A stretch of DNA of 64,000 bases from a virus, in the IMG/VR virus record IMGVR_UViG_3300028840_001107; one strand, given 5' to 3'. Positions 8,436 through 61,716 of the stretch are shown in pieces. A model generated the notes under the pieces. It did no database searches. It worked only from the letters and a program-made list of their open reading frames with translations, and had not been told where the DNA came from. Within the stretch, counting starts at the first letter, position 1. Every line of letters starts with the position of its first letter. A program made the position numbers and the translations under genes.

Positions 8436-8510
8436 CGACGTTTGTAGTTTGAACCGTCGACTACGTTGTCGGCGGTTAGAGTTTGTTCAAGTTCGATAGG
8501 AGAATTAGAA

Positions 8511-8831: not shown

Positions 8832-8844
8832 AACGGAGTCTGGT

Positions 8845-10301: not shown

Positions 10302-10306
10302 AGCGT

Positions 10307-44147: not shown

Positions 44148-44531
44148 CTACTTTTCGTAAGTACCCTCTACGCCTCTAGCAACGCGATCACGTGTACGCT
44201 TATGAAGCCACATCATCGCCTCTTGTAACTTAGTTAGAGCCAAAGCGTTTTCCCTACAAGCGTATTCTCCTGATTGAAAACCTTGGAGACGATGCTCTAC
44301 AACTGCGAGTAACGCTTCGTTACTAATACCGTTTACCCCAACCTCTTGAATCGGACCTTTCTGAAATCCAATATTACATATGACCGAACCATTTAGTTCT
44401 TCGTTGAACTCGTCATTCGGACAGTAAATGGTATAAGCATGACAAGCGTTACCTTTCCCAGGCTCATCTAACACTGAAATCTCTAGAGTCTTGTTCAGAC
44501 CATTTACTTTATGACTAGTGATTCTTTCCAC
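44148..44531 (-). CDS. N4 gp49 / Sf6 gp66-like family protein
   Basis: FQKGPIQEVGVNGISNEALLAVVEHRLQGFQSGEYACRENALALTKLQEAMMWLHKRTRDRVARGVEGT matches my recollection of the Phage_gp49_66 family signature. Confidence 0.55.
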   Translation of the reverse strand: MERITSHKVNGLNKTLEISVLDEPGKGNACHAYTIYCPNDEFNEELNGSVICNIGFQKGPIQEVGVNGISNEALLAVVEHRLQGFQSGEYACRENALALTKLQEAMMWLHKRTRDRVARGVEGTYEK

Positions 44532-45478: not shown

Positions 45479-47597
45479 TGTCGACTGCTTCTAGCATCTC
45501 TACTGTCGTCGGATCTAACTTCCAAACTTTTTTGTTATCCTTCTTCACGCAACGTACCGCTCCTATCTTACGAAGGAACGAGAGTAGACCAGAAACTTTA
45601 GAGCGGTTAAGTCCGGTAAGTACGTGGATCGACTCGTTAGATACGCCGTCGTCGAAAGCGTAAAGATGCTTACATATCTCTAGCGTCGGACCTCTACTCG
45701 TATCGAGAGCTACCCTAGCTACTCGTTCGGTAACTAGCTCGTCGTTAACGTCCCGATTGAGAACTACGGCTAGACACTTAGAGAGTCTAATCAGTTGAGA
45801 GGTGAGGCGGGTAGATACTTCTCTCTCAACGCTTTCGTCCTGCATCTTCGAAGGTCTAGCACGCATAACCGCTACTAACTTAGCTAGCCAATAGATGTAT
45901 TCAGCGAACTCTTCTGTTATATCGCCCATCCCGTTCAACGTTTCTATCGCCGTCTCTTTGAGATGGTTAATATAACCTCCGGTCATCGCCATCGCTTTCG
46001 TTAGCTCCGGTTCTTGTTGGCTTTCGGGTTTACCGTTCGCTTCTACGTTAACTGACTGCCAAGCCTTGATAGCCTTTCTAATTGCTATCTCTCGTTCCAT
46101 ATCTTGGTCGATACGATCCATGATAACGCAGTCAAGAAAGCGTTCTCCTAGTTCGCTGGAGTCGATAGAGCGCAAGGAGTTCGTACCGCAGAGTATCCAA
46201 GTCATTCGGATACCGTTGTAGTCGTTTTGAACGCGGTTACGATAATGAGCCCTACTCGTACCGTCGTAGATGTCTCTAGCCTCTGCTAGGATCTGTCCTA
46301 GGTTAGGAGTTTGAAGAAGCGTGTCGCCGTCTTTCGTTACTAGCGTCTTACCGCGTAACCGATCTATCAACGAGTTATCTTGGCTTCCGTCCCCATAGCC
46401 ACTATGGAACCCGCGTATCGTACTCTTAGGGATAACGTGAGTAAGGTTAGTACTCAACGCTTCGCATAGGGTACTCTTACCGCAGCTAGCAGGACCGATA
46501 ACTTTCAGCCAAAGCTGGTCTCCTTGCATCTTCGTAGAGACTACGCTAGCAAGCATAACCGATAAAGCGTAGTCTAGACCATCGGTCCACTTTAACGCTC
46601 TCTTCCACGACATCGTCAACGCTCTATAGCTTTTACAGTTTAACGGGTTGACGGTCTCTTTGTTAGAAGTCTTATCGTTTGGATCTACCCACTCGTTAGG
46701 TACTGAGCGGATGTCGTCGGAAAGCTCGTTGAACTTATCCAACCTTCTGATAGTCGTCTTCTTCGAAGTTAGGTAGTCTCGAATATCGTAGCCAGAAGAA
46801 AGCTCAGGGTTCCATTGGTTGCCTTTAGCACTCCAATCTAAATACCTAACGTCACTAGCCGTACCGTAGAGAGCGTTGGCTACTTTCTTTATACCAGCTA
46901 ACGCTGCCGGCTCAGGGTTATGCTTTGTTGGGTGGTCGTTATCGAATAACACCCAGACCTCTTTACCCTTGAATAGGCGTAGCCATTCTTCCTTGAATAT
47001 CTTACAACCGGGAGTAGCTACGACCGTATAAGGTACGCTATGAGATCTGAATACCTCATCTAACGCCATAGCGTCCCAAGCTCCCTCAACTAATACTACA
47101 ACTTGGTTAGACTTTCGATAGAGCTTACGACCGAACAGACACGTCCGGAGTCGATGGCTACCGTCGTCGAAAACTAGCGGGCTACTAAAACACTTCGACT
47201 CGTACTTGTAGAGGTTGGCTAAAACGCAACTACCTTGCTTCTTTGAGTAAGTATGTCCCGGAATCAGCCACTTACTACTGATAGCTGACTTAACGACTCC
47301 CCAACGTTTAAGCGTACTAGTCCGTACCAGCCCACGTTCAGTAGCTAGGCGTTTATAATCTGCCGTGGTAGTCGTCTTTAGACTCTCCTTCCATAGACGC
47401 TCAATAAACGTAGCTTGGTTAAACCCGCCGCAACGAAAGCATTGGCCTACACCTTTTTCAACGTTTACGCGAAACTTCTCAGTATCTCCGCACCACGGAC
47501 ACTCTCCACCGCATCTTAGATTCCCTTCTCTATACTCTAGGTTGACTCCGTGAAAATCGTATAGCTTAAGACTATCCGGCAGTTCCTTCTTTCCCAT
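45456..47597 (-). CDS. Bifunctional DNA primase / P-loop helicase
   Basis: Zinc finger CPWCGDTEKFRVNVEKGVGQCFRCG, TOPRIM VVLVEGAWDAMAL and VLFDNDHP, Walker A IGPASCGKSTL. Confidence 0.85.
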   Translation of the reverse strand: MGKKELPDSLKLYDFHGVNLEYREGNLRCGGECPWCGDTEKFRVNVEKGVGQCFRCGGFNQATFIERLWKESLKTTTTADYKRLATERGLVRTSTLKRWGVVKSAISSKWLIPGHTYSKKQGSCVLANLYKYESKCFSSPLVFDDGSHRLRTCLFGRKLYRKSNQVVVLVEGAWDAMALDEVFRSHSVPYTVVATPGCKIFKEEWLRLFKGKEVWVLFDNDHPTKHNPEPAALAGIKKVANALYGTASDVRYLDWSAKGNQWNPELSSGYDIRDYLTSKKTTIRRLDKFNELSDDIRSVPNEWVDPNDKTSNKETVNPLNCKSYRALTMSWKRALKWTDGLDYALSVMLASVVSTKMQGDQLWLKVIGPASCGKSTLCEALSTNLTHVIPKSTIRGFHSGYGDGSQDNSLIDRLRGKTLVTKDGDTLLQTPNLGQILAEARDIYDGTSRAHYRNRVQNDYNGIRMTWILCGTNSLRSIDSSELGERFLDCVIMDRIDQDMEREIAIRKAIKAWQSVNVEANGKPESQQEPELTKAMAMTGGYINHLKETAIETLNGMGDITEEFAEYIYWLAKLVAVMRARPSKMQDESVEREVSTRLTSQLIRLSKCLAVVLNRDVNDELVTERVARVALDTSRGPTLEICKHLYAFDDGVSNESIHVLTGLNRSKVSGLLSFLRKIGAVRCVKKDNKKVWKLDPTTVEMLEAVDNDAKVLL

Positions 47598-48289
47598 CAG
47601 TTAGACCTCTTCAGATTCAGCCGCTCTATTTTACCAGTCGTTACATTTATCTTTGTCTCTACTTCGAACTGACCTTCGCAGTTAGGGCAACCGCCGTTAG
47701 GAGTAAGCCCAAGGTAGACTCGTTTGACTACAGCGTCACTAACCGGCGTACCGCAGGTAGGGCAGTTCTTATTACTACAAAGAATGCGTAGCTCCGTCTC
47801 CATGTCGGTAACGTCATGTACTCGTTCCTCCGATCCGCAGGAAGGACAGCTACAGGCATCCGGAGAAGTAACCTCTAGAGTATCGCTGACCGCTTGTATC
47901 TCTTCCTTACGGTCTCTACGTTCTTCGTCGGCCAGCTCTGAGATAAACTTATCAGGGTAACGCTTCTTGAGCTTGGCGATGTTAGTCGCCATAACGTTTC
48001 CCATGTCTATATCGAGAGCGTTACACATCTGGGCGATATACCAAAGACAGTCGCCAAGTTCTTCGATGAGGTTCAGCCTATCGAAGTCTCTACCGTAGTA
48101 GAGCCAACGCTCTATACAAGCAGCGACTTCTCCGGCATCAGAGGTTAGACCTAACGCCGCGTGGATCATTCGTATCGCCGTTGGACCTTCTTCCCCGATA
48201 CGGTCGTAGGATCTACTTTGATTACACTCTGTACGCTTCGCCAGCTTCTGATATTCGAACGGGTCCATCAGTATTTTCTCACTTCCCAA
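47597..48289 (-). CDS. MazG-like nucleoside triphosphate pyrophosphohydrolase with C-terminal zinc-ribbon region
   Basis: YQKLAKRTE...LGLTSDAGEVA...EELGDCLWYIAQMCNALDIDM...NIAKLKKRYP. C-terminal CSCPSCG...CPTCG...CPNC. Confidence 0.8.
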   Translation of the reverse strand: MGSEKILMDPFEYQKLAKRTECNQSRSYDRIGEEGPTAIRMIHAALGLTSDAGEVAACIERWLYYGRDFDRLNLIEELGDCLWYIAQMCNALDIDMGNVMATNIAKLKKRYPDKFISELADEERRDRKEEIQAVSDTLEVTSPDACSCPSCGSEERVHDVTDMETELRILCSNKNCPTCGTPVSDAVVKRVYLGLTPNGGCPNCEGQFEVETKINVTTGKIERLNLKRSN

Positions 48290-48831
48290 AAGACTGTATT
48301 GAAGTTAGGTAGTGTTCCCCAAGGTTTGGAGTAGGTAGAGAATTCAACGACGTGGTCTAGGTAGCGGTTAAGTAGTTCCCACAACCACCACCAGCTGTTA
48401 TCATCTAGGTTTGCCCTGAGAAGGTTATACGCTCCGTACCAGTTCGCGTGTTTTGTCTCCGTAGCTAACGCCGTACGCATCGGAGCTACAACCGTACTAT
48501 AAGTTAGATCCAAGTAGTCAACACTTCTTCGGACTTCTCCTTGGATCACGGTGAGCTTAGTAGGAGCCATCGCAGAGATATACAGATTAGACTCTCCGAT
48601 TTTCTTCTTCGCTCGATACCAAAGCCTAGGTATATTATACCCCGGTACGTCGTACCACGTCTCTCCTCCGGCTATCCGGTTACGGATATGGTATAGCGTT
48701 CTAGGACTAGGCATAGAACAAGCCCAAGCCTCTATCGTCGGCCAAGTAGGAGAACGGTTACCAAACTCTCCCTTCTCATATCTCCTAACGAAATCCTTTT
48801 TGGTTAGTACCGGTTTATACTTAGTTTCCAT
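48268..48831 (-). CDS. Hypothetical Trp-rich protein (187 aa)
   Basis: ORF track. Overlaps the MazG-like and ThyA-like genes. No family recognised. Confidence 0.55.
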   Translation of the reverse strand: METKYKPVLTKKDFVRRYEKGEFGNRSPTWPTIEAWACSMPSPRTLYHIRNRIAGGETWYDVPGYNIPRLWYRAKKKIGESNLYISAMAPTKLTVIQGEVRRSVDYLDLTYSTVVAPMRTALATETKHANWYGAYNLLRANLDDNSWWWLWELLNRYLDHVVEFSTYSKPWGTLPNFNTVFWEVRKY

Positions 48832-49885
48832 TCTTCTTTCTCCAATTCTCTTCTCGTTTCCTGAGCCAAGCCTTACCGGCTATACTCCACTGTTCGTCCA
48901 AAACTAGATTCACAGCTTCGAAAGCTCTTTGATAGTCCCGTTCCTTATGGTGGCGGAAAGCTAGTACCATCGGAGAGACTACCCTAGCTAAGTAGGGTTC
49001 ATGGAGTAGGGTTTCGTTGCCGTCGATAAAAGCGTTGGCTTCGTCGAAGAATCTATCTGGGTCTTCAACTAAAGGTATCGGACAAGATTTATCCGCAGCG
49101 AAGCGTAGGTCAGAAACCAAAGAACCTACTTTCCACTTCTCTGGAGTCCACGTCTTTTTGTAGACGTGAAGGTTGTTAGTAAATTGGTGGTAGTAACCTA
49201 CCGGCAACTTTATACAGTTAGCTACATACTCCTGTAGGTAGGAGAAGTGTACGACGTTCGCTCCTAGCATACCCCAGACCATATCGTTAGACCGATTAGT
49301 AACGGTCATGTCTAACCTATCGTTCACTACTCGAAAGTAAGCCTGGGTATTACAAGGTACGTCTTTACCGCCGTGAGTAGCCGTCCAAAGGTCGTGTCGT
49401 TTTTCATCCCTATAGATACGTTCTATATCTGAAGCATCCCACATCTGTATAACGCAGCGACGACTCGTTGGATCCTTCTTTAGTTCTTCGATTATGACTT
49501 TCAACTGATCGTATCCGAACTGATGACGCCAACGATAGCCGTACGCTCCGTGAAATGTTTCTCCGTCATCGGAGAACTCTCGCATCCTGGGAAGAAAGTA
49601 AGCCAATGAGTCGACGTCTTGGCGACCAGCTAACATCCAGATGGATTCGAACAGATGGAAGAACGGATTACAGTCTCTACCTTCGTTGAATAAGACTCTT
49701 TGGGTTGGGCTAACGTACGTCACGGTTACGGGGTCACGGTAAGCGTAGACGTCCCCATACCGGCTAGGCGTTGCTACGATTTTGAGGCTAGTCTTCTCCG
49801 GATGGTTGTGGATTCTAATCTGCTCGTTCATGTCGAGAACTAGTCCACGGAAAGCGTGATTGACGTTAGGATAGTACAAGTGCAT
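48821..49885 (-). CDS. Thymidylate synthase-fold enzyme (candidate dUMP hydroxymethylase or divergent ThyA)
   Basis: By-eye alignment to E. coli ThyA. ESIWMLAGRQD matches ELLWFLQGDTN. YGYRWR...DQL...LKKDPTSRRCVIQMWD matches YGKQWR...DQI...LKNDPDSRRIIVSAWN. PCNTQAYFRV matches PCHAFFQFYV (nucleophile Cys kept). TNRSNDMVWGMLGANVVHFSYL matches [20 protein letters not shown] (Asn177 equivalent kept, implying a uracil substrate). Confidence 0.8.
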   Translation of the reverse strand: MHLYYPNVNHAFRGLVLDMNEQIRIHNHPEKTSLKIVATPSRYGDVYAYRDPVTVTYVSPTQRVLFNEGRDCNPFFHLFESIWMLAGRQDVDSLAYFLPRMREFSDDGETFHGAYGYRWRHQFGYDQLKVIIEELKKDPTSRRCVIQMWDASDIERIYRDEKRHDLWTATHGGKDVPCNTQAYFRVVNDRLDMTVTNRSNDMVWGMLGANVVHFSYLQEYVANCIKLPVGYYHQFTNNLHVYKKTWTPEKWKVGSLVSDLRFAADKSCPIPLVEDPDRFFDEANAFIDGNETLLHEPYLARVVSPMVLAFRHHKERDYQRAFEAVNLVLDEQWSIAGKAWLRKREENWRKKNGN

Positions 49886-50438
49886 TGAGTTGCTCCTTTA
49901 CGTAAGGAATCGGGTTTGCCGCTTCGTGAAACATCGCGTTACCTCTACTTGGAAATAGAACGCCCTTACCTCCATGACGTTCGAACTTAAACAAGTTCTC
50001 TTCGCTATCGTCTATGAGGATTCTATCCGCTTGGGCGAAGAGTTCTTTGTACGGAGTGATGAAGAACCTATCGAACTGCGTGCCGAAGTAGTTGCGTATC
50101 CAAATACACTTTCCTAGATGAGCTGAAGGAGATACCGAAGGACTCGACAAGAGAAACCATTCCGACTCCGTTTGGTCGTTAAGTCCTTCAAGAACTGCTA
50201 GTAGTTCTTCGAACCAAGGTAGCGGTTTTATGTCGATCCAAAACCGCGTACCTAAAGCGTTGATAGGCTCCCAAAATTCGTTCGTACTCAAGCCCATCGT
50301 TTTCTCGATACTCCACTGGCCTGGACTCCGCTCTCGTTCGAGTTGATTTCTCGTCCAGCGGTGGATTTCTACGGCGGGTGTAGTAAAATCCGCTAAAACT
50401 TCGTCTATGTCTACGAAAATAATCCTGGAATTTTTCAT
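49866..50438 (-). CDS. HAD-superfamily 5'(3')-deoxyribonucleotidase (NT5C-like)
   Basis: N-terminal IIFVDIDEVLADF (DxDxV motif I, typical NT5C context). 190 aa. Confidence 0.65.
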   Translation of the reverse strand: MKNSRIIFVDIDEVLADFTTPAVEIHRWTRNQLERERSPGQWSIEKTMGLSTNEFWEPINALGTRFWIDIKPLPWFEELLAVLEGLNDQTESEWFLLSSPSVSPSAHLGKCIWIRNYFGTQFDRFFITPYKELFAQADRILIDDSEENLFKFERHGGKGVLFPSRGNAMFHEAANPIPYVKEQLNALVLS

Positions 50439-50536
50439 TTTTCTGGGTCTATCCCTATTTACTTTGGGTGCTCTATCCCGATACTAGTAGGTAGTCGGTT
50501 ACTACTTTTTACTCTTTCCTTTTAAGGAGCGGCAAA

Positions 50537-50941
50537 ATGGCTACGAAGAAAACGACGAAGGCAGTGGCGGCGAAGAAGACGGTTGCGAAGAAAGCTACGG
50601 CGAAGAAAGCTACGGCGAAGAAGACGGTCAAGAAGACGACGACGAAGAAAGCTACCGCTAAGAAAGAGGTCGGAGAGCTTACCGGTACTCAGCTGAGGAT
50701 TCTGGCTTACCTCAAGAAGGTTCGTAAGTCCGTTACCCGCCCGCAGGTCTGCGAAGCTATCGACCTTCGAACGGAAGTTTTCGGTAACCAAACCGGTTAC
50801 GTCAACGACGAAATCAATCAACGAAAGGTTCACGCTCATAACCTCATCAACCGCAAGCTCGTTCGGAAGTCCGAAGCAGAAGTAGACGGCAAAAAAGTCG
50901 TCGTCTATACGATAACTCCCGCAGGAAAGAAGAAAGTCTAA
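50537..50941 (+). CDS. Histone H1-like Lys/Ala/Thr-repeat protein fused to a winged-helix domain
   Basis: MATKKTTKAVAAKKTVAKKATAKKATAKKTVKKTTTKKATAKKE, then LTGTQLRILAYLKKVRKSVTRPQVCEAI... AAGGAG lies 8 nt upstream, and the gene has its own terminator. It is the only plus-strand gene between 9.4 and 64 kb. Confidence 0.7.
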   Translation: MATKKTTKAVAAKKTVAKKATAKKATAKKTVKKTTTKKATAKKEVGELTGTQLRILAYLKKVRKSVTRPQVCEAIDLRTEVFGNQTGYVNDEINQRKVHAHNLINRKLVRKSEAEVDGKKVVVYTITPAGKKKV

Positions 50942-50961
50942 CGGCCACCGCCGTTCGCCTC

Positions 50962-50988
50962 AGCCCGTCCTAATCGACGGGCTTTTTT
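50962..50988 (+). terminator. Rho-independent terminator of the H1-like gene
   Basis: AGCCCGTC/GACGGGCT 8 bp stem (50962-50969 / 50976-50983) followed by TTTTTT. Confidence 0.8.
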
Positions 50989-50992
50989 CGTC

Positions 50993-51967
50993 TCAAGAAT
51001 AACAGTCTATCCCGAGAGGATTAGGTGACTGATACTTTGGGTTCAGCCACTCGTACCGTTCGCTTACGTCATCGAACTCTCCGTCAAGAATCGTCGCTAC
51101 GTTCGCCTCTACCTCCGGACGTTTCGTTTTTGAAATCGACGTAGCTTTCCAACGCTTCTCCATCCAGTGCTCGTAGATTCTATCGAGCTTAGGAAAGTCA
51201 ACGTCAGCGTAGTAAGCGTTGAAGAGTTTCGTTGCCGAGTGTCCTTCTAGTGCGGCTTCAAGATAGTCGCGACACCAGGAGATTGAGTTGTAGAGTTCGG
51301 TCTCGTCAACGACTCCCGGAAAGTGTCGAAACTCAATCGTATCGGTTTGGAGAAGCTGACGAAGGTTAACTGCCGCTCTAGCTTGAGCGTGCCACAAAAC
51401 TTTACCCTCTCTACTTCGCGGCACTTCTGCTTCTAAGAACTCTTGAACCGTCGATGCCGCCAGCTGCTTCTCCACTCGGTTGAGAGGTATCCTAGAAAAG
51501 TGACTCATACGCATCCAGTGGTAACGCTTACGTGCCGCCTTGAGTTCTTCCTTCTCCGGATACTGTTCTCCGGTTGGGTACGGTAGCGGATCAACTAAGT
51601 CAAAGACCTCATAGTTTTCCGACACGTACTTTTGAATCCGCTTAAGTAGCTTAAGATCCTTCGACAGTCCAGGTATCCGGATATGAACTTGCATCCCGGT
51701 ACGATAGTTCACCGTGGCTCTAGGATACCGACGAAGAAACCTAGTCATCAAGTCGACTTGTTCGTCAACCGTATCCGTAGGTGGTGTATTGATTTCTCCT
51801 CCGAATGGATACGAGATGAGTCTAGGATCTGCCGCGATGCCGTTGCTATTACAGATGTTCGGTTCTGGATCGCGTTCGTATCCTTCCCAACCGTTTCTAG
51901 TATCCCAATCGGCATACTCTAGTTCCACGCCGTAGGTCCAATACTTAACGTTAGATTTAGTTTTCAT
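50993..51967 (-). CDS. Glutamine-synthetase-like amidoligase (Amidoligase_2 family)
   Basis: YGVELEY near the N-terminus, FGGEINTPP, then NYRTGMQVHIRIPG. This follows the family pattern fGvEiE ... E.vSP ... cG.HVHv. Confidence 0.6.
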   Translation of the reverse strand: MKTKSNVKYWTYGVELEYADWDTRNGWEGYERDPEPNICNSNGIAADPRLISYPFGGEINTPPTDTVDEQVDLMTRFLRRYPRATVNYRTGMQVHIRIPGLSKDLKLLKRIQKYVSENYEVFDLVDPLPYPTGEQYPEKEELKAARKRYHWMRMSHFSRIPLNRVEKQLAASTVQEFLEAEVPRSREGKVLWHAQARAAVNLRQLLQTDTIEFRHFPGVVDETELYNSISWCRDYLEAALEGHSATKLFNAYYADVDFPKLDRIYEHWMEKRWKATSISKTKRPEVEANVATILDGEFDDVSERYEWLNPKYQSPNPLGIDCYS

Positions 51968-51969
51968 TA

Positions 51970-52761
51970 CTAACTCCTTGCCGGTTTTGCTCTACCTACC
52001 TGCCGCCAGTTGGGCACGTCTACTTCTTCTCTCTTATGCTTAGGACCAACCATAACCTTACGATAGCCGTTGAGTTTTACTGATCCTGCGAAGCGTTCTA
52101 AGATAATCTCTTCATCTATCTTAGCGTCTACTAAACTCCCTTCTCTAGGTCGTACAGGGTTCTGTACCGCTCTAGTCTTATCGAAACCGATATAGTGTAT
52201 CCGCCCTACCGCACCGTCTGCCTCTCGGTGAGCGCAGACTCTATAAACGTCTTCGGTGTAGATGATTCTAGGATCTAAGTAGAACTCTGGAGGGTGAACT
52301 ACCCTAAACATCTGAAGACCCCCGGAGATATGACCGGCCGATCTACCGTAACCGGGTTTCAACCAAGTTCGATTAGATGTAGAATTCGGACCTACTAGCG
52401 TTACGTCGTGCTCCTCCATACACCGTCGTGAAATACTTATAAGCGTATCGACGTCAGTGTAGAAAGGCTTACGCATCGTTATCGTTTTACTATCCAAGTC
52501 ATCATCCATACGGAACGCATAGCGAAACTTACTACGCTTAACGAGACGATAGCAGTGAATTATTTGAGCGGTGAGCCCGCTACGACCTTTCTTCACCTCT
52601 ACGTTTTTGAAATTCTGTTCCTTCACCCAACGTCGATGATCGGCGTAGACTTCTGGATCAGAGATTACCCATACCTTACAGGATGGTCGGTGGTTAACTA
52701 AAGTCTTGATTGGGGCTGGTCGTTTAGCCGGAATAACGACGACTACGTTGCGAAAATACAT
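51970..52761 (-). CDS. GT-A-like glycosyltransferase candidate (TET/JBP-associated glycosyltransferase-like)
   Basis: N-terminal beta-strand VVVVIPAKRP and acidic FRMDDDLD motif ~85 aa later (DxD-like). Weak, pattern-level only. Confidence 0.4.
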   Translation of the reverse strand: MYFRNVVVVIPAKRPAPIKTLVNHRPSCKVWVISDPEVYADHRRWVKEQNFKNVEVKKGRSGLTAQIIHCYRLVKRSKFRYAFRMDDDLDSKTITMRKPFYTDVDTLISISRRCMEEHDVTLVGPNSTSNRTWLKPGYGRSAGHISGGLQMFRVVHPPEFYLDPRIIYTEDVYRVCAHREADGAVGRIHYIGFDKTRAVQNPVRPREGSLVDAKIDEEIILERFAGSVKLNGYRKVMVGPKHKREEVDVPNWRQVGRAKPARS

Positions 52762-53588
52762 TAGCCTATATTCCAGAAAAGTGTTAGGTACTTCTTAAAA
52801 TTGTTATGCTCTCTCATCCACCAACGAAACGCTTTGAGATCGTAGTATGGGTTACAAGGCCATGGGGGACTTGGTCCGGATACCGCTTTGTCTTTGTAAG
52901 CGTAACCTTCGTCGATAATCGTTAGTGGATACTTCGCCGGTAGATTAGTCTTTTGGCGAATGTATCGATCCACTTGGTCGTGGGAACGAGTATAACCTAA
53001 ATGGATTATAAACATCGGAGGTGTTCGACCCAGTTTTAGAAAGCCTTTAATCACTCCGGCAGCTAACGTAGCACTACTAGCTGGAATGATAACCCGACGA
53101 ACTTTGGCTAAGTCTCTAGTCACCTCTTTCGCGGTTTCGATTACCGACTCTTCAAGCTTCAGAGCGTTAGGCATCATGTAGCCACCTTCTCCTTCGCAGA
53201 TCTTTCGAGCTTGGTGAAAGAGAATAGCCGAACGCCCAGCTGGTAAACCCACTAGCTCCGCTCCTAACGCTTTCGCTTGAAGCTGGGGAGGTCTTGGTCC
53301 CGGTTCGTACTTATACTCAGGGTAGAAGTTTATACACCTTCTTCCCAGGATCTTACAGGCACGAGCTACCGCATGACCTGCTTGAGAGTGATACGTATCG
53401 AGAACTCCTACAGGGATGAGAGCATCGAGTTTCTTGACGTGGGCGTAAACTCCTCTGGTTTTCGAGAAGTACGGACCTGGGGGCGTACAACTCTTGTCTT
53501 CGCGTTTTACTAGAAGTTGGTACTTGCTACGATGGTCTTCGACAGGCGTACCGCGTACTAGCATGCCTTGAGCGATAATCTTAGCCAC
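52761..53588 (-). CDS. Fold-type II PLP-dependent enzyme (ACC deaminase / Trp-synthase beta-like)
   Basis: TPVEDHRSKYQLLVKREDKS...FSKTRG (candidate Schiff-base Lys), HSQAGHAVARACKILGRRC, IIPASSATLAAGVIKG. These parallel TP....l.vKReDl...gNK.RK, SNh.ra.A.aa..lGl.c and G.GgT.aG. Confidence 0.65.
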   Translation of the reverse strand: MAKIIAQGMLVRGTPVEDHRSKYQLLVKREDKSCTPPGPYFSKTRGVYAHVKKLDALIPVGVLDTYHSQAGHAVARACKILGRRCINFYPEYKYEPGPRPPQLQAKALGAELVGLPAGRSAILFHQARKICEGEGGYMMPNALKLEESVIETAKEVTRDLAKVRRVIIPASSATLAAGVIKGFLKLGRTPPMFIIHLGYTRSHDQVDRYIRQKTNLPAKYPLTIIDEGYAYKDKAVSGPSPPWPCNPYYDLKAFRWWMREHNNFKKYLTLFWNIG

Positions 53589-54369
53589 TTGGTAATCTCC
53601 TTCGGATAGCTTTGAGGATTCCCACCAGTTTCTTATTAGTAGAGCAAGGGAACTTAAGACAACCGTGGATTAGTTCTCTCGTATCTTTTCCAATCGGGTA
53701 GTGCCCCCCTAGATGAGATTTCCACTTACAGAAAATAGTCTCTGTTTCCTGAACGTTGATAGTACGCTCGTGAATAGGTGGGGCGGTTAGATACCCTAAG
53801 TTTTCAATGAGGTATTCGTGAGCGGAAAGAAGCGAATCGGCGGAGTCGATACCGCACGCTTCACAAGTTACCTCAGCTCCTTGCTTAGACGTCTTAAACA
53901 TCTGTCGCAAGTCTTCGGTACGAAACTCAACCCTACCTACCTCCAATCGATCTAGCATGTCGGGCACTTTCCACTTTATCCATTCTCCGAAGCCGTGTAA
54001 CTCCGTTACCCGTTTCATGATCTTATCGGCCCTAGGTCCGACTTCTAGGAGCCACTCTACTATCTCCGTAGCGTCCGAGAATCGCTGCCTAAGAGACTCT
54101 ACGGAATCTTCGGCTAGTTTACCCCGAAAGTGTCTACGCTCCGTACCGCGTGGGTATAGCGTACCTCCTAGGGCTATTTTCCGTAACTCTCCGAAGAAGT
54201 CTCTGCTCTCAGCTACTCTCGAACATAAACCCGCGTGGTAATAGCACCAGTAGGCTACTAGCCACCGGTCTAATTTACGTTTCGGCATCTTCGCTCGATA
54301 GAGAGCAACGTACAGTGGATCCAAGTCTTCGGTCGTGACTAGGATCTTACCGAACTCTAGCACGTCCAT
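53581..54369 (-). CDS. Second candidate DNA base hypermodification protein (aGPT-pyrophosphorylase clade 2/3-like?)
   Basis: EDLDPLYVALYRA...DRWLVAYWCYYHAGL...PRGTERRHFRG. Recollection-level similarity, plus location inside the cluster. Confidence 0.35.
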   Translation of the reverse strand: MDVLEFGKILVTTEDLDPLYVALYRAKMPKRKLDRWLVAYWCYYHAGLCSRVAESRDFFGELRKIALGGTLYPRGTERRHFRGKLAEDSVESLRQRFSDATEIVEWLLEVGPRADKIMKRVTELHGFGEWIKWKVPDMLDRLEVGRVEFRTEDLRQMFKTSKQGAEVTCEACGIDSADSLLSAHEYLIENLGYLTAPPIHERTINVQETETIFCKWKSHLGGHYPIGKDTRELIHGCLKFPCSTNKKLVGILKAIRRRLPSG

Positions 54370-54370
54370 A

Positions 54371-55750
54371 CTAACCCCCCATCGGAATTTTAAGATGCTT
54401 AGGCTTGATCGCGATAGCCGTGCCGGCTAACTCATCTCCGCACGGCGGTTCACCGTTATCGTCTACGCAATAGAGGCAACCGCTTGGGGGACAAACCGAT
54501 AGAGGTTTGAACTTTTCTTCGGAACTACTCCGCGTATAGACAGGAACGCGATGGCCGTGGCACTGGTCCGAAGTCGTATACTCTCTACCGATACTAACTC
54601 CGGTCTTGTCGACGATTTTACCACTTTCGTTTCGCTCGTAACGATACTCATAGCAAACGGAGTACGTTAACCCGTAGTCAGAAGCCCAACGAATATACTT
54701 ATCGTGAGCCGCCATTCTATACGCTTCGTTTACTGTCCGTTGTCCGCCGATATTCTCCTGGAAGAGAGACTCGAATGCTCCGCCACGCTCTGGGCCGAAG
54801 CGTTTAGTAATACGATCTACCATCGCTGGGGCCCAAGAGTATCCAGCTTCAACGAACTTAACGATGACGTGATCTGCTCCGGCGTTCGCTAACTTGCGAA
54901 ATAGAGACTTAACGTGACCGTGCGTAGTCACTCCCGGTATGATCGGGTTGACTTGTATAGAAACGTAGATGTCGTTTTTCTTTAGCCGTCGTATATCTTT
55001 GAAGTGGTCGGCTAACGGTAGAGCACCTGGAGATAGCTTTCTCCAGTCGGAGCTACTACAAGTGTTAATCGATTTCTGCGCGTAGCTATGCTTATTCTTT
55101 CGAAGAAGACGTATAGCCCAAGAAGGGTAGCGCAGTCGACTCAAGAAGAAGATAGGCAACCCCACTTCTACGCAAGCTTCAGCTGCCTCCTCTGAGTTAT
55201 GGTAGAGTTCTTCTAGTGGAAGAAACGGATCAGTAAAACTACTGAAGTAAACTGCCGCTCCACGACGTACTGGACGCAGCTGCTTCCTAATCTGTTCGCC
55301 GTAGTTATTCGGAACGGTTATAAGGCCGGTACCACGGTATCCGCGAAATCCAGAGTTTACGTAGCAGAACGCGCAGCCTACCGCGCACCAACCGCCGTAG
55401 GGTTCAGTAAGAATAGCCTCAGTAAAACACGGTCTTGGTCTAACACCCTTTGGTTCGTGCTTATTCTTATACCAACCCTGAAGAGGTTTCGCTTTATCAA
55501 TCCTCATATGAGGGTACGGTTCTAAGTAGGCTAAGACGGTTTTGCGATTCTCCTCAGATGCGTTACGCGTCATGCCGATCTTGATCTCTCGTACCTTGAT
55601 CTTTCTTTTCAAGACCTTGTCGTAAACAGTCTTGATCGGACCTAAGTTATCCCTAGGTTCAGGACGCATAAAATATTCGTAGTTGGTGGCGGCAGCGTTG
55701 TCGTCTTCTCCAACCATCTTCGTCGTTATCCAAGATTGTTCCTGATCCAT
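54371..55750 (-). CDS. Radical SAM enzyme (SplB/COG1533-like)
   Basis: EPYGGWCAVGCAFCYVN carries the CX3CX2C motif at Cys122/126/129. Extra C-terminal Cys cluster (CHGH...CPPSGCLYC...PPC). Confidence 0.8.
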   Translation of the reverse strand: MDQEQSWITTKMVGEDDNAAATNYEYFMRPEPRDNLGPIKTVYDKVLKRKIKVREIKIGMTRNASEENRKTVLAYLEPYPHMRIDKAKPLQGWYKNKHEPKGVRPRPCFTEAILTEPYGGWCAVGCAFCYVNSGFRGYRGTGLITVPNNYGEQIRKQLRPVRRGAAVYFSSFTDPFLPLEELYHNSEEAAEACVEVGLPIFFLSRLRYPSWAIRLLRKNKHSYAQKSINTCSSSDWRKLSPGALPLADHFKDIRRLKKNDIYVSIQVNPIIPGVTTHGHVKSLFRKLANAGADHVIVKFVEAGYSWAPAMVDRITKRFGPERGGAFESLFQENIGGQRTVNEAYRMAAHDKYIRWASDYGLTYSVCYEYRYERNESGKIVDKTGVSIGREYTTSDQCHGHRVPVYTRSSSEEKFKPLSVCPPSGCLYCVDDNGEPPCGDELAGTAIAIKPKHLKIPMGG

Positions 55751-55762
55751 TTCTTTCTCCTA

Positions 55763-56314
55763 TCAGCGTGAAGCCTGATCTACCCACTTGAGAACTGTTC
55801 GATGAGCTTGAGTCGATGCTCTACGTACGCATTTTATGTTCGCGGCAGTTAGCTTAACTCTAGCCCGTTCAATAACTCCTACCCGATTGGTCGTATTGGC
55901 TGGGTTTAGTGGTTTAGTATTACCAGCGGCACTTCTCCTTTGTTTTATTCTATCTAAGCACTGGTCGAGTGGGGTTGTTAGGAATACAACCTGTAGAGAC
56001 TCTCCTAAGACATCCCCCATCTGTAACGCCCACTTCGTATCTTCGCTTAGGAGTAATCCTTCAGCGAGAATAACTTCAGCGTCTACCTCTTTCATCACGT
56101 CGAAGACTTGGCGAGCACTACCTATTGTATCGCAACCGCCGCACGCTAGTCCTTCGTAATGACCTAAGACCGCAATCTTTCCTTTCTTCGCTGTGTAAAA
56201 TAGTGGATTCTTTCTACCGTCGATAAAGTGCTTAGCCCACTTGTACTCCTCCATAACTTTACGCATGACGGTAGTCTTACCGCTACCGCTCGTGCCCCTA
56301 ATCTGAATAACCAT
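55763..56314 (-). CDS. P-loop kinase (candidate 5-hydroxymethyl-dU DNA kinase)
   Basis: MVIQIRGTSGSGKTTVMRKV Walker A. 183 aa. Flanked by radical SAM and pyrophosphorylase-like genes. Confidence 0.6.
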   Translation of the reverse strand: MVIQIRGTSGSGKTTVMRKVMEEYKWAKHFIDGRKNPLFYTAKKGKIAVLGHYEGLACGGCDTIGSARQVFDVMKEVDAEVILAEGLLLSEDTKWALQMGDVLGESLQVVFLTTPLDQCLDRIKQRRSAAGNTKPLNPANTTNRVGVIERARVKLTAANIKCVRRASTQAHRTVLKWVDQASR

Positions 56315-57185
56315 TGTATCTCCTCTTCATCTTACCATCGCCTAGCCTAGCTCGTTCGTACTTATCGAACTCGCAGAGGCTATGCTCTATCTCTCGCATC
56401 TCCAGCCTAGGCTTCGTATGAATCTTCTTACGAGCTAACGTGAGAAGTTTCTTCATACGCTTTAGCCAATCCTTAGGCCACGCCGGAGAACTAGAGTTGT
56501 TAGCTTTACCGGTTGGCTCCTCAGCGATACGGTATAGACCGCGTATAGCTCCGGGACCAGGGTTACACCACGTCAGAACGTCCGTAGCGTCTCTTAGTAG
56601 GTTCGTATACCGGAGGTCGCACACGACTTCGTAAGCCATGAATCCGCCTAGCCCGTCGTAAGCGGTTAACGCTTCGTGAGCTTCCTGGAGAGAAGATACC
56701 TCTACAATCTTCGCGGTTAAGTTCTTACGATCTACCCAGACGTTCTGAATACGCTCGCAGATAGCTTCCAGCTTAGGCTTACCCGCTGGAGAGTTTATCA
56801 TAAACGCTCCGGTGAATACTTTCTCTTTACGGTCTCGTATCTTTCCCAAGATACGGAGAGTCTTAGCCTTACTCCACTTTACGAGCAGCCCTTGGTCGAG
56901 CAGTATCTCTCCGGTTGGTATGTAGTTAAACCAACGGAAGATAATCGTAGCCATCACTTGATCGACGTCGGGATGGTAGGCGAACGGTTCACGGATATTC
57001 TCTCTGAACCATACCGTCGTCTTATCGTTTTCGCGGTACGGATTGGTAAAGAAATACTCACGCATAACCGGATCAGTTGTCCAGGGTTTTGGTTCTCCTC
57101 TCTCTTTACGTAGGTGGATCGCGTGGCGTTCCTTTATCCAGTATAGAAAACGTTCGGTTGGGTCTTCAGGGATCATACTACTCAC
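56298..57185 (-). CDS. Candidate alpha-glutamyl/putrescinyl thymine pyrophosphorylase-family (aGPT-Pplase) DNA base hypermodification protein
   Basis: RHAIHLRKERGEPKPWTTDPVMREYFFTNPYRENDKTTVW matches my recollection of the family signature (G.p.PWT.Dpil..yrFcNv.RE.Dr.T.w). Confidence 0.5.
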   Translation of the reverse strand: MSSMIPEDPTERFLYWIKERHAIHLRKERGEPKPWTTDPVMREYFFTNPYRENDKTTVWFRENIREPFAYHPDVDQVMATIIFRWFNYIPTGEILLDQGLLVKWSKAKTLRILGKIRDRKEKVFTGAFMINSPAGKPKLEAICERIQNVWVDRKNLTAKIVEVSSLQEAHEALTAYDGLGGFMAYEVVCDLRYTNLLRDATDVLTWCNPGPGAIRGLYRIAEEPTGKANNSSSPAWPKDWLKRMKKLLTLARKKIHTKPRLEMREIEHSLCEFDKYERARLGDGKMKRRYNGYSD

Positions 57186-59259
57186 TCCAGTTGTTCTTAT
57201 GGTATTCGATACTTACCGGCGTAGGTATGCCGATGTCGTTGCCTCCTTCTTCCATCAGCTTGGCTACCTTCTTGACGATTGATAGGTTGCGTTTATCCGG
57301 TCTATACGGAAAGTCAAATACAATCTCGTCGTGGACTTGCATAATCATTTTATACTCCTTCCGACGTCTACGACTGAGATCAGTAAGGTAGTTATAGCAA
57401 CGTATCATCGCTTTCATCATCCACCACATCGCCGTACCCTGAACGTGGTAGTTAAGAGGTACTGTAGGTTTGACCCTACCGTACTGTCTTTCGCATTCGA
57501 GCGGATACCCTCTAGAAGGATCTACGGTCTTATCGGGTATCGTCTCTACGTAACCATACTTCGTAGCGTGTTCTACCATCCTATCGTTGAGCTTTTTCAT
57601 CTTAGCAAAACGAGCTTGAACTAGCTCTTGCGCTCCGGCTTTATGATAAGCTCTATCCGCCGTACCGCTTTCTGGTACAGCTCCGTATTGTACTGCGAAG
57701 TTTCCATTCTTCGTCCATTGGTAGTTTGTACTTGCGTACTTCTTCTTTGCTTTTAGAAGGTATTCTGGATCGCTTGTATCTAGTTTAAGACGCTTAGTCC
57801 AAAGAATATCGAATACGAGTAGATGATTGCTACCGAAGTATGGAGGCTCATCGGGTTTCTCGAATAGGACTATCATCTCATCTTCTTCTGCTTCGTACGC
57901 TGGTATTCGTAGTTCGATGTTATTAGCGTCGAGAGACCACCACTCTCTACCTTTAGCCGGACCAAAACAGTAGCGTAGGTTGAAACCCTCTTGCTTACTG
58001 ATATTTTGTTCGTTGGGATTACTACTCGACCAACGTAACGTATTTGTACCGGTTGTATTCAACGACGGGTGAAGGACTCTCGCATCTCTCTTTTTAGGGA
58101 GAGAGAATTTGACGTAACTATTCATGTAGGTTATTGCCGTGTCTCGTCTACGCTTCTCTAGTAAGCTCTCCAAGAATCTAGGTATTCGTTGGTCTTCGGA
58201 TAAAACTTTAGCAGCTTCTAGACAAGCTAACAGATCCGCCCTACCCATGCGAAGTTTTCCAGTCGGTGTTCTTATGTTTTTCCTCTTTGCTACGTCTTTA
58301 CCTTTGGCCCCTGAGCCTACAAAACCGGAAGCATCTACTATCCCCATAAAGGGCTCAAGATACTTTTCTCCAAACTCTAATAGAGAGGTATTTGTACCGC
58401 TCTTTGGTAAGGTTACTTCACTGCCGATACTTTTAGATAGACTAACGCAATCGTCATTAAGGGCAGCTGATTGGTTTTGATACTCTCCTAGTAACTCGTT
58501 TAACCTAGACTCTGAATAGGTTACGCCAAAGTCTTCCATGTCGACAACGATAGGAAGGAGCTTAAGGCGTTCTCTATAGATAGCTAGTAGCTTACGTTCC
58601 TTCATCTTACGAAGATGCTTTTTGTAGAGACGAATCGTAGCGGCACTATCCATGTTCGCGTAGTTCTCTAGGACGGTAAACCACTCGTGGTCCGGAGGAT
58701 ACTCTGACGCTTCAGCTATTTGTCTAGGTAACCAGGCATCGTATTTCCAAACGCTGCCCTTAGCACTCGGCATTCCCTTCAGACCTGCCTCAGCGATCTT
58801 CCATTTGGGAAACTCCTTCTTCGCTATCCGCCTAGCCTTTTGACAGGCATCCTTTAGAGCTTCGTTATAGCCGTCTATATCGATACCTAGATAAACTAGC
58901 GACATCGTAGAGAGGTCGTGACGGTTAAGACTCGATAAGAGATGTCCGCTTAGTAGAGTATCCCGTACTTTCGACCAGTCCCAACGAAACTTTACGTGGT
59001 TAGCTTCGAATACGTTTCTCAAAGCGTGGTAGTCAAACTTAGCGTTTTGCAATACGACGATTTTCGCAGCGTCGATAAGTCTTTGAATCTCGATGAGGTC
59101 TTGTCTGGGGACGATAGGTTGACGCGTAGCCGGACAGACTCTCCAGTGCCAGTAGAGTTGGTTATCTTTATCGTCGCAAGTCGTAACGAAGTACGGCATA
59201 GCATCGTGGTAGAGGTCTAAACCAGTCGTCTCAGTATCTAACGCTAGAACCTTAGGCAT
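57178..59259 (-). CDS. Family A DNA polymerase with 3'-5' exonuclease domain
   Basis: Exo I LALDTETTGLD, Exo II LQNAKFDYHAL, Exo III YANMDSAATIRLY. Pol motif A SLDANNIELRIPAY, motif B TKNGNFAVQYGA, motif C IMQVHDEIVFD. Confidence 0.9.
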   Translation of the reverse strand: MPKVLALDTETTGLDLYHDAMPYFVTTCDDKDNQLYWHWRVCPATRQPIVPRQDLIEIQRLIDAAKIVVLQNAKFDYHALRNVFEANHVKFRWDWSKVRDTLLSGHLLSSLNRHDLSTMSLVYLGIDIDGYNEALKDACQKARRIAKKEFPKWKIAEAGLKGMPSAKGSVWKYDAWLPRQIAEASEYPPDHEWFTVLENYANMDSAATIRLYKKHLRKMKERKLLAIYRERLKLLPIVVDMEDFGVTYSESRLNELLGEYQNQSAALNDDCVSLSKSIGSEVTLPKSGTNTSLLEFGEKYLEPFMGIVDASGFVGSGAKGKDVAKRKNIRTPTGKLRMGRADLLACLEAAKVLSEDQRIPRFLESLLEKRRRDTAITYMNSYVKFSLPKKRDARVLHPSLNTTGTNTLRWSSSNPNEQNISKQEGFNLRYCFGPAKGREWWSLDANNIELRIPAYEAEEDEMIVLFEKPDEPPYFGSNHLLVFDILWTKRLKLDTSDPEYLLKAKKKYASTNYQWTKNGNFAVQYGAVPESGTADRAYHKAGAQELVQARFAKMKKLNDRMVEHATKYGYVETIPDKTVDPSRGYPLECERQYGRVKPTVPLNYHVQGTAMWWMMKAMIRCYNYLTDLSRRRRKEYKMIMQVHDEIVFDFPYRPDKRNLSIVKKVAKLMEEGGNDIGIPTPVSIEYHKNNWSE

Positions 59260-59803
59260 AATGTCTATCCGCTTCTGCTTCGGTTTTGAATTTCGGTGGG
59301 TACTCTTTACCGTCTACGACTAGTCGCCAATCTTCCCAAGCGGCTAACGCTCCGTTAGCTATTAGACTCTTAAGCTCTACGACTCGTTCTGCCGCCGTTA
59401 GGCGTACTAGTCCAGCTTCTCTCAGGACGGTATTACCATGGCGGATAATCCGCGTAAACTCTTGGTGCCTGATCTTCCTAGTATCGAGTAGCCACTGAAG
59501 TCTACCGTCGTGAATAAAGTTGTGGCAGTCTTTACAAAGAGGCACCGCTTCAATGTAGTAGAGCTTACCACTAAGGTAGTCGACTTCGTAACGCTCGTGA
59601 GCGTCCAGTACTCCCTGCTTCGTTTGGTACTTTGAAATACCGCAAGCCTTACAATGAAAGTTCGTAGACTCGTATGCCTCTCTCCGAACTTTATCCCACC
59701 ACGGCGTACCTAAAACTACTCTAGGAGCTACGCCGTGGAGAGGTTTCGGTATGTTACATCCAAGTAGTAGTTTAGGCTCACGTTTCCATTTCCATCTAGC
59801 CAC
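59252..59803 (-). CDS. HNH-like zinc-binding nuclease candidate
   Basis: HCKACG...HERYEVDY...CKDCHNFIH arrangement. Confidence 0.45.
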   Translation of the reverse strand: MARWKWKREPKLLLGCNIPKPLHGVAPRVVLGTPWWDKVRREAYESTNFHCKACGISKYQTKQGVLDAHERYEVDYLSGKLYYIEAVPLCKDCHNFIHDGRLQWLLDTRKIRHQEFTRIIRHGNTVLREAGLVRLTAAERVVELKSLIANGALAAWEDWRLVVDGKEYPPKFKTEAEADRHYA

Positions 59804-60008
59804 TGGTAATCCTTTCTAGCCGACTACTACCGCACCGTTTACACGTCAGCTTCCTGGAAGAGATAGACCTACAGTCTAGGCAACGATAGAGGGATTGGCT
59901 ACCGCTACCGTTACAAGGTACACATCTACCTCCGGAGCTACTAACGCCGGTGCCGCTACACGCGATACACTTAACCTTCTTCAGGCGTAGTTTCTTTGCT
60001 CCTCCCAT
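59796..60008 (-). CDS. DnaJ-type CxxCxGxG zinc-finger miniprotein (70 aa)
   Basis: CIACSGTG...CVPCNGSG, plus CLDC...CKRCG. Confidence 0.5.
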   Translation of the reverse strand: MGGAKKLRLKKVKCIACSGTGVSSSGGRCVPCNGSGSQSLYRCLDCRSISSRKLTCKRCGSSRLERITSG

Positions 60009-60348
60009 CTGCGTCTATATCCTTTCTCGGCAGGTTTCTACGGTCAGCCTCTTTACGAAACTCTTCGTACACGTTCTCTGAAACGATGATTTGGTTATCC
60101 GATAGCATCGGGTTGCTGATAACGTGGATCTGTCCTCTCCAACAATCTAATATACCGATAGCTAACGAAGCGTTCATCCGCTGTTGGTTAGCCTTCATAC
60201 CTTTTGAGGCTTTATCCATTAGCTGTTTCAGTTCTTTTGGGTCAGTTACTTGGTTCTTCTCCTGAGGCCCCGTCGTTGCTTGGCTCATCCGGCGTTCGAA
60301 TTGATTGTAACGTTCTGGCGATGACGGGTGCGAGTCCTTCTCGTTCAT
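59971..60348 (-). CDS. Hypothetical protein (start ambiguous)
   Basis: The track ORF overlaps the upstream gene by 107 nt. The internal ATG at ~60219 (MDKASKG) would remove the overlap. Confidence 0.4.
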   Translation of the reverse strand: MNEKDSHPSSPERYNQFERRMSQATTGPQEKNQVTDPKELKQLMDKASKGMKANQQRMNASLAIGILDCWRGQIHVISNPMLSDNQIIVSENVYEEFRKEADRRNLPRKDIDADGRSKETTPEEG

Positions 60349-61506: not shown

Positions 61507-61545
61507 GTAAAGTTCTCATCTTCGGGTAGTAGATCCTGGGGAGAA

Positions 61546-61704: not shown

Positions 61705-61716
61705 TCGCGTTCTCCT

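Follow-up and report, generated by a model that had tools for sequence, protein, structure and literature searches.

What do the last two genes of a thymidine hypermodification operon do, when phage M6, which has the same type of operon, has no counterpart of either? This question is raised by the virus record IMGVR_UViG_3300028840_001107, a stretch of 64,000 nt that is called the window here. Thymidine hypermodifications protect phage DNA from restriction enzymes and are a source of enzymes acting on the DNA polymer. To our knowledge, few of these pathways have been worked out so far. The open reading frames (ORFs) of the window were screened against Pfam, PHROGs and NCBIfam. The two ORFs in question encode a predicted amidoligase of 324 aa and a predicted glycosyltransferase (GT) of 263 aa (ORF263), and they follow the gene of a pyridoxal phosphate (PLP)-dependent enzyme. 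We believe it fairly probable that the 3' end of this M6-type operon encodes two tailoring enzymes, of which the amidoligase would acylate an amine on the DNA base and ORF263 would add a sugar. The genes and sites concerned are listed below, with 5-hydroxymethyldeoxyuridine abbreviated as 5-hmdU, deoxyuridine as dU and S-adenosylmethionine as SAM.

50940-50983: two terminator-like hairpins that separate the amidoligase gene from a convergent plus-strand gene of 134 aa
50993-51967, minus strand: amidoligase ORF, 324 aa, the final gene of the operon
51970-52761, minus strand: ORF263, 263 aa, sandwiched between the PLP gene and the amidoligase gene
52761-53588, minus strand: PLP-dependent enzyme, homologue of the M6 gp52 decarboxylase (Pfam PALP; phrog_7093; 45% identity)
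53581-54369, minus strand: ADDT/aGPT-Pplase2 amino acid:DNA transferase, homologue of M6 gp51 (Pfam ADDT, E 1.1e-14; 39% identity)
54371-55750, minus strand: radical SAM enzyme, homologue of the M6 gp53 glycinyl-thymine isomerase (57% identity; phrog_9252, E 4.6e-186)
55763-56314, minus strand: P-loop 5-hmdU DNA kinase, homologue of M6 gp54 and PaMx11 gp49 (Pfam AAA_33, dNK, HMUDK_HMUD1)
56298-57185, minus strand: HMUDK_hel, homologue of M6 gp55 and PaMx11 gp50 (Pfam PF18723, E 9e-55; 35% identity to gp55)
57178-59259, minus strand: DNA polymerase A, upstream in the same gene array
48821-49885, minus strand: thymidylate-synthase (TS)-like protein, presumed dUMP hydroxymethylase supplying 5-hmdU (Pfam Thymidylat_synt; phrog_5131; 41% identity to M6 gp58)

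Homologues of M6 gp51-54, together with gp55-like and gp58-like proteins, are all encoded in one operon of the window. The co-located homologues of the kinase, ADDT, radical SAM enzyme, PLP decarboxylase and dUMP hydroxymethylase have 27-57% identity to M6 proteins. The kinase shares 27% identity with M6 gp54, and phmmer matched it to PaMx11 gp49 at E 8.9e-31. M6 gp54 is the 5-hmdU DNA kinase, gp51 the glycine:DNA transferase, gp53 the glycinyl-thymine isomerase and gp52 the decarboxylase that yields 5-(2-aminoethyl)-dU (5-NedU) (Lee et al. 2021, PMC8989533). These homologies suggest that the phage of the window can make 5-NedU. Unlike in M6, two more enzymes follow the PLP gene, and from them we argue that 5-NedU would be an intermediate here and not the end product. 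The 76 cultured phages whose records show a gp53-like radical SAM enzyme gave no match to either the amidoligase or ORF263. The initial annotation had placed both enzyme classes outside the characterised pathways. This is true of M6, but amidoligases had already been reported to be associated with thymidine hypermodification clusters, their function being unknown, so this class is not new to the field; glycosyltransferases are not mentioned in that report (Lee et al. 2021, PMC8989533).

The two ORFs had been located by short motifs directly downstream of the PLP gene, and both the coordinates and all of the motifs were confirmed. YGVELEY, FGGEINTPP and GMQVHIRIPG are present in the 324-aa ORF, and VVVVIPAKRP and FRMDDDLD in the 263-aa ORF. 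The gene order on the minus strand is DNA polymerase A, HMUDK_hel, P-loop kinase, radical SAM enzyme, ADDT, PLP enzyme, ORF263 and amidoligase. The M6-type genes form one minus-strand array (48821-57185), and its sole interruption is the plus-strand gene of 134 aa. At the junction of the PLP gene and ORF263, which reads TAATG, the PLP stop codon overlaps the ATG of ORF263. Two bases separate the ORF263 stop from the amidoligase ATG, and GGAG stands ahead of the amidoligase start. Judging from these junctions, the ORF263 and amidoligase genes are translationally coupled within the operon. The two terminator-like hairpins appear to close the operon. Their position alone was used as evidence, because the total of terminator-like sites in the scanned region does not exceed the chance expectation (7 against 8.0). 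Assemblies of JGI, ENA and Logan data gave the PLP-ORF263-amidoligase arrangement independently of one another, and therefore the gene order is no assembly chimera. At the nucleotide level, the region matched none of 50,697 phage records. Judged by the homologues of both proteins, described below, and by the independent assemblies, both ORFs are real genes and not chance ORFs.

The 324-aa protein had been proposed to be an amidoligase resembling glutamine synthetase (GS), and this assignment was borne out. It passes Pfam Amidoligase_2 PF12224 with 30.1 bits (cut-off 22, E 5.9e-7), while PHROGs and NCBIfam gave no match. The family has more than 539 homologues, the best to E 1e-120, mostly from phage-sized contigs, and many of them carry an Amidoligase_2 match too (precomputed Pfam). 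The invariant residues in an alignment of 37 sequences include G13, E15, E17, N40, G56, E58, H95, R197, R203, E212, F213 and R214. The AlphaFold2 (AF2) model had a predicted local distance difference test score (pLDDT) of 93.1. All 50 of the 50 PDB matches listed by Foldseek were GS, GshF/glutamate-cysteine ligase (GCL), YbdK or PafA. Three results pull in the other direction: these fold matches are weak (E 2.5e-4 to 2e-2, query TM-score (TMq) 0.27-0.39), the Pfam match spans residues 58-233 only, and a PDB sequence search with the family profile returned nothing meaningful, that is, no sequence-related solved structure. Because the fold scores are low and no sequence-related structure was found, we place the protein on a distant branch of the GS-like fold. 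The model and the Pfam match support its membership of the GS-like carboxylate-amine ligase class.

The protein resembles the Amidoligase_2/GS/GCL/YbdK/PafA superfamily in passing the Pfam threshold and in its exclusive fold matches, and its conserved Glu, His and Arg residues are candidates for a part in metal, ATP and acyl-phosphate chemistry. It differs in that the clade of the window is specialised to phage hmdU clusters, and its presumed substrate is a DNA base side chain instead of a metabolite or protein. The isoelectric point was also considered as a clue to DNA binding (ORF263 pI 9.9, amidoligase pI 5.8) and was rejected, since M6 gp51-53, whose action on DNA is proven, are acidic too.

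The genomic contexts of the amidoligase family bear on its substrate. Viral loci with amidoligase relatives were fetched (80 loci), and their neighbours within +/-10 kb were typed by locally built iterated hidden Markov models (HMMs) with Pfam spot-checks. The amidoligase counts cover 85 loci, and all sampled loci together number approximately 110. The P-loop kinase was found in 75/85 amidoligase loci, and ADDT, either M6-type or a divergent type that still passes Pfam ADDT, in 70/85. Three architectures were recognized. Architecture A (21 loci, including phage Simon) has ADDT, a gp47-like flavin adenine dinucleotide (FAD) lyase, the amidoligase, an LMWPc phosphatase, the kinase, HMUDK_hel and the TS-like gene. 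Architecture B (48 loci) has a class-II glutamine amidotransferase, the amidoligase, LMWPc, the divergent ADDT and the kinase, and some of these loci additionally have a TAGT (TET-associated glycosyltransferase) or GT4 gene. Architecture C, which comprises the window, the loci L009-L011 and variants, has the kinase, the radical SAM enzyme, ADDT, the PLP enzyme and the amidoligase. LMWPc lies directly 3' of the amidoligase or is fused to it in 70/85 loci (for example L012:10863-11327 and L048:10885-11454; fusions P0058 and L013:9671-11350). The class-II glutamine amidotransferase is a partner in 48/85. Fusion proteins of the amidoligase and the 5-hmdU DNA kinase are P0073 (HMUDK_HMUD1, E 1.7e-12), P0100 and P0070.

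Architecture A reproduces the PaMx11 order gp46-gp47-gp48-gp49, with the acetyltransferase slot taken by the amidoligase (and LMWPc). Homologues of PaMx11 gp46, gp47, gp49 and gp50 occurred 26, 21, 60 and 41 times in the fetched loci, and a gp48-like acetyltransferase occurred in none of them. The amine of 5-aminomethyl-dU is exposed by gp47 in PaMx11 and then acetylated by gp48 (PMC8989533). The window itself has no FAD lyase, no second TAGT and no gp48-like acetyltransferase. In a neighbour-joining tree of the amidoligases, contexts A and C interleave in one clade and B is separate; the window groups with L008-L011. The A route (FAD lyase) and the C route (radical SAM and PLP enzymes) both end in a primary amine without a carboxylate. 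We take a primary amine carried by DNA as the acceptor because it is the simplest common denominator of the amidoligase contexts. By this analogy, the amidoligase would acylate the amine of 5-aminoethyl-dU. Acylation of an aminoalkyl-dU was the first option of the initial annotation, and comparative genomics, the gp48 slot and the A/C clade favour it.

The likeness to the PaMx11 pathway to 5-acetylaminomethyl-dU (5-AcNmdU; gp46 ADDT, gp47 FAD lyase, gp48 acetyltransferase, gp49 kinase) is that the side-chain amine at C5 is unmasked and then acylated, a step that is proposed for the window, and that the amidoligase sits exactly in the gp48 position in 21 metagenomic loci. There are two differences. 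The donor in the window would be a free carboxylate activated with ATP and not acetyl-CoA, with a GS-like instead of a GNAT fold. The amine would be reached by the M6 route (aminoethyl) and not by the FAD route (aminomethyl). The family may also act on another amine. Vibrio phage 2.275.O (L003, MG592671) has a 30%-identical amidoligase homologue (7866-8978) adjoining QueF, and its neighbours include QueC-like, GTP cyclohydrolase I and N-terminal nucleophile (Ntn) amidohydrolase genes, a 7-deazaguanine DNA modification cluster. QueF makes the aminomethyl group of preQ1, so that this context, too, fits an amine acceptor. The analogy suggests that the amidoligase family may also acylate the preQ1 aminomethyl group in DNA.

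The genes themselves, the folds of the proteins, their family relationships and their genomic associations are shown by the analysis; in the pathway proposed here, we infer the substrates, the reaction order and the products. The TS-like enzyme would make 5-hmdUMP, which would be incorporated into DNA. The kinase would then phosphorylate 5-hmdU in DNA, and ADDT would attach glycine. The radical SAM enzyme would isomerise the adduct, and the PLP enzyme would decarboxylate it to 5-NedU. The amidoligase would use ATP to activate a small free carboxylate, likely an amino acid, as an acyl phosphate, for which gamma-glutamylation through the glutamate gamma-carboxyl is a precedent in the GS, GCL and PafA superfamily. 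It would ligate this carboxylate to the primary amine of 5-NedU to give an N-acyl-aminoethyl-dU, a role parallel to that of the PaMx11 acetyltransferase gp48 on 5-aminomethyl-dU. ORF263 would act as a metal-dependent (DDD), TAGT-like GT-A enzyme that glycosylates DNA with a nucleotide sugar as donor. Its acceptor would be either the hydroxymethyl group of 5-hmdU, giving a base-J-like product, or a group on the tailored side chain.

Three observations speak against amine acylation. LMWPc and the glutamine amidotransferase, the usual partners of the amidoligase, are absent from the window, and LMWPc is also absent from its closest relatives. No paper was found in the literature that characterises either an amidoligase or a TAGT-like enzyme as part of a 5-hmdU kinase pathway. 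The carboxylate of glycinyl-thymine is also common to contexts A and C, and therefore a carboxylate could be the partner borne by DNA. The amidoligase might thus act on the carboxylate of N-alpha-GlyT or C-alpha-GlyT, amidating it or extending it with an amine or amino acid, and give a branch product in place of or alongside 5-NedU. GS-like ligases do activate carboxylates, a glycine transferase of the M6/PaMx11 type starts every A and C context, and in the large B clade a class-II glutamine amidotransferase accompanies the amidoligase, a classic set-up for ATP-dependent amidation. We nevertheless regard this branch reaction as unlikely. The FAD lyase in A cleaves off the glycyl unit and the PLP enzyme in C decarboxylates, so that modification of the carboxylate would be futile or blocking, because the next enzymes remove or need it. 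The amidoligase also occupies the slot of the amine-acetylating gp48, and no amidotransferase is encoded in the window. We keep to acylation of the 5-NedU amine as the preferred reading.

The second protein, ORF263, had been described as GT-A-like, and its AF2 model together with Foldseek agreed. The protein had no Pfam (E<=0.1), PHROGs or NCBIfam match, and tblastn against phage records found none. While a word-indexed search returned itself and one relative only, an exhaustive HMMER search of 1.84 billion proteins recovered 46 cluster representatives, 35 at E<=1e-30. D86, D87 and G124 are invariant in the 36-sequence alignment of the family, and H42, G59, G62, Q66, Y71, D88, G147, D171, H178 and G183 are nearly invariant. 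The model had a pLDDT of 94.1 and a predicted TM-score (pTM) of 0.91. Its PDB matches were the GT-A family-2 glycosyltransferases RmlT, TarS, TarP, SpsA and AvpGT (E ~1e-6, TMq 0.4-0.55). The best BFVD matches were phage glycosyltransferases, many of them annotated as TAGT (TMq 0.58-0.70), and the T-even beta-glucosyl-hydroxymethylcytosine alpha-glucosyltransferase was also among the BFVD matches.

The relation to TAGT was examined further at the family level. Pfam TAGT PF20691 was matched by 12/36 members of the ORF263 family (E<=0.1), and P0163, an ORF263-family/TAGT protein with a C-terminal 2-oxoglutarate (2OG)-dioxygenase-like extension, scored 41.6 bits against a gathering threshold of 27.5. 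Alignment of the ORF263 family with Pfam-verified TAGT proteins by hhalign gave a probability of 86.4% (E 4.6e-6, 194 columns) and paired DDDL with DDDL and EDVYR with EDFH. The features common to ORF263 and phage TAGT (PF20691) are the GT-A fold, an N-terminal IP(S/T)xxR strand, the DDD motif and the ED motif. The differences are that the hydroxymethyl base in the window would come from a dUMP hydroxymethylase and is a uracil, not a cytosine, and that the ORF263 family is usually preceded by a divergent ADDT. It counts against the relation that ORF263 of the window fails the Pfam TAGT model itself. A PDB sequence search with the family profile gave nothing meaningful and no sequence-related solved structure. 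A TET/JBP-like gene was not detected among the window ORFs, in a weak single-query test with the dioxygenase-like C-terminus of P0163. The expected match to the TAGT profile stood for the family and did not stand for the protein of the window. In view of this failure against the HMM and of the weak negative for a TET/JBP-like gene, we file ORF263 as a sister of TAGT. The model and alignments point to a divergent GT-A glycosyltransferase of this kind and not to a TAGT member.

The genomic contexts of the ORF263 family are narrow. The 24 loci recovered by the search fall into 16 clusters at 95% identity and represent approximately 14 lineages, and every locus long enough to judge has hmdU-cluster genes. 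A divergent ADDT lies just upstream of the ORF263 homologue in 12 lineages, with the kinase, HMUDK_hel and TS-like genes no more than a few kb beyond. Single-sequence phmmer had suggested that ADDT was absent from these loci. This was rejected when Pfam showed that the upstream neighbour is the divergent ADDT, which iterated HMMs found in 62 loci. A radical SAM/SPASM enzyme unrelated to M6 gp53 sometimes stands between the two genes (L091:9015-10004, L089:9018-10010, L090:8636-9634), and it points to another tailoring chemistry. Behind the ORF263 homologue, L089 has a GT2 gene and a GT64-like gene. The L093-type loci (L093:9139-12692; L094, L105, L106) have an HD hydrolase, HMUDK_hel, the ORF263 homologue, a Pfam-positive TAGT and the TS-like gene, and no ADDT or P-loop kinase was detected there within 10 kb. 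This cluster type is a candidate for di-glycosylated 5-hmdU. No other sampled locus combines the ORF263 family with the amidoligase or with the M6-type radical SAM/PLP pair.

The locus L010 is syntenic with the window from DNA polymerase to primase. Its PLP gene ends in the same ...LFWNIG, and the amidoligase starts 14 bases on, without ORF263. Therefore ORF263 is a precise insertion in the lineage of the window, and we assume that it was added to the operon recently, as a module. Base composition was tried as a sign of recent transfer and gave none, the G+C fraction of ORF263 (0.470) being the same as that of its neighbours.

Which group would ORF263 glycosylate? We tentatively put 5-hmdU first, with a base-J-like product, because it is the only acceptor available in every ORF263-family context, including the L093 type. 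The product would then be of the type of kinetoplastid base J (beta-D-glucosyl-hydroxymethyluracil). The differences are that kinetoplastids are unrelated organisms and that their hydroxymethyluracil arises by JBP oxidation of T in DNA, against a presumed origin at the nucleotide level in the window. If 5-hmdU were the acceptor, the GT and the kinase would be rivals for one hydroxyl. Residual hmdU is not reported from related phages; the study of SH-Ab 15599 reports dT and the modified base only (PMC13458397). Both points disfavour 5-hmdU as the acceptor. It is also possible that the acceptor is a group on the tailored side chain, as suggested by the usual position of the ORF263-family gene right after ADDT or other tailoring genes. 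Here the difficulty is that 5-NedU has no hydroxyl for a GT.

Three genes of the window bear on the sugar:

61717-62760, minus strand: NAD-dependent nucleotide-sugar epimerase/dehydratase (Pfam Epimerase, E 2e-27; GDP_Man_Dehyd, E 2.7e-22; phrog_540)
9405-10301 and 10307-12049, minus strand: two further GT-like genes, located where the structural module ends (Pfam Glyco_trans_1_2, 7.7e-17; phrog_2170, 8e-9)

The score of the epimerase/dehydratase stays far short of all NCBIfam equivalog cut-offs. Its gene shares a block of ~3.9 kb (59252-63176) with an HNH endonuclease (59252-59803), and in L010 this block is missing between a 250-aa gene and the DNA polymerase. The epimerase/dehydratase and ORF263 are thus both present in the window and both absent from the syntenic stretches of L010, which is suggestive of the former as a candidate supplier of the sugar donor. 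This link is weakened by its basis, a single comparison with a partial relative. The two GT-like genes could glycosylate virion proteins or extend a DNA glycan.

Both enzymes could also act in sequence on one side chain. An amino acid would be ligated to the amine of 5-aminoethyl-dU, and a sugar provided by the phage's own nucleotide-sugar enzyme would follow. This would yield a glyco-aminoacyl thymidine, which amounts to a glycopeptide-like base in DNA. We know of no description of such a base, and we regard this variant as a rather long shot.

A quite different possibility is that one or both enzymes act off DNA, the amidoligase on a free metabolite (for example the ADDT donor) or in tagging a protein, and the GT on a protein of the virion or a polymer of the host surface. 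Some phages without a known hmdU system have Amidoligase_2 proteins as well. The two GT-like genes beside the structural module (9405-12049) mean that non-DNA glycosylation may occur in this phage. We nevertheless hold action away from DNA to be improbable. Translational coupling ties both genes into the operon, some relatives have the amidoligase joined to the DNA kinase in one protein, and the ORF263 family was found in hmdU clusters only among the sampled loci. The closest fold relatives of ORF263 are TAGT proteins, which are DNA-base glycosyltransferases.

It is very improbable that ORF263 is a GT-A-fold nucleotidyltransferase which adenylylates or cytidylylates phosphorylated 5-hmdU for a better leaving group, as GMPPA/B, UAP, IspD and KdsB among the lower-ranked Foldseek matches, the kinase in most ORF263-family loci and the N-terminal IPAKRP, which we take to recall loosely the IPAR motif of cytidylyltransferases, might suggest, because the top PDB and BFVD matches are glycosyltransferases, the invariant DDD that follows strand 4 represents the metal/diphosphate motif of GT-A enzymes, homology ties the family to TAGT, and L093-type loci pair the ORF263 homologue with a second TAGT and no detectable kinase.

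We keep the reading of ORF263 as a DNA glycosyltransferase and of the amidoligase as an amine-acylating enzyme. Because an amidoligase and a DNA-type glycosyltransferase end this M6-type operon, the phage DNA probably contains a base not yet described, and it would do so if either enzyme acts as proposed. Phage T-dioxygenases have been linked with amidotransferases, kinases and ADDTs, or with glycosyltransferases, in a 2026 PNAS paper (PMC13229309). Compared with the literature, three points are new. The first is the amidoligase in place of the PaMx11 acetyltransferase, with the amine-acylation hypothesis that follows from the replacement. The second is a small TAGT-related GT family that appears, from its neighbourhoods, to be dedicated to hmdU clusters of the dUMP-hydroxymethylase type. 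The third is the presence of both enzymes on an M6 core, in this phage only among the sampled loci. Amidoligases, frequent companions left unexplained since 2021, gain a concrete proposed role, the ATP-dependent acylation of the unmasked amine. The ORF263 family would extend TAGT-like DNA glycosyltransferases from TET/5-hydroxymethylcytosine (5hmC) systems to dUMP-hydroxymethylase/5-hmdU systems. If the proposed activities are true, the enzymes could serve as tools for placing carboxylates or sugars on DNA at chosen positions.

The remaining genes around the operon are listed here:

44148-44531, minus strand: 127-aa protein with a Pfam Acb2/Tad1 hairpin domain (30.1 bits, cut-off 27)
47597-48289, minus strand: MazG-type nucleotide pyrophosphohydrolase, nucleotide-pool accessory (Pfam MazG, E 9e-11)
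48268-48831, minus strand: 187-aa protein without a family match, overlapping the end of the TS-like gene
49866-50438, minus strand: NT5C-type 5'-deoxynucleotidase, nucleotide-pool accessory (Pfam NT5C, E 3e-9)
50537-50941, plus strand: Lys/Ala-rich, histone H1/HC2-like protein, 134 aa, pI 10.5, between the amidoligase and NT5C genes

Homologues of the 187-aa protein hold the equivalent position in L010 and in nine ORF263-family loci, and this protein is thus a conserved partner of the dUMP-hydroxymethylase-like enzyme. The plus-strand gene of 134 aa is kept in the same place and orientation in L009-L011. The Acb2/Tad1-like protein of 127 aa is a candidate sponge for cyclic-nucleotide immune signals (anti-CBASS/anti-Thoeris).

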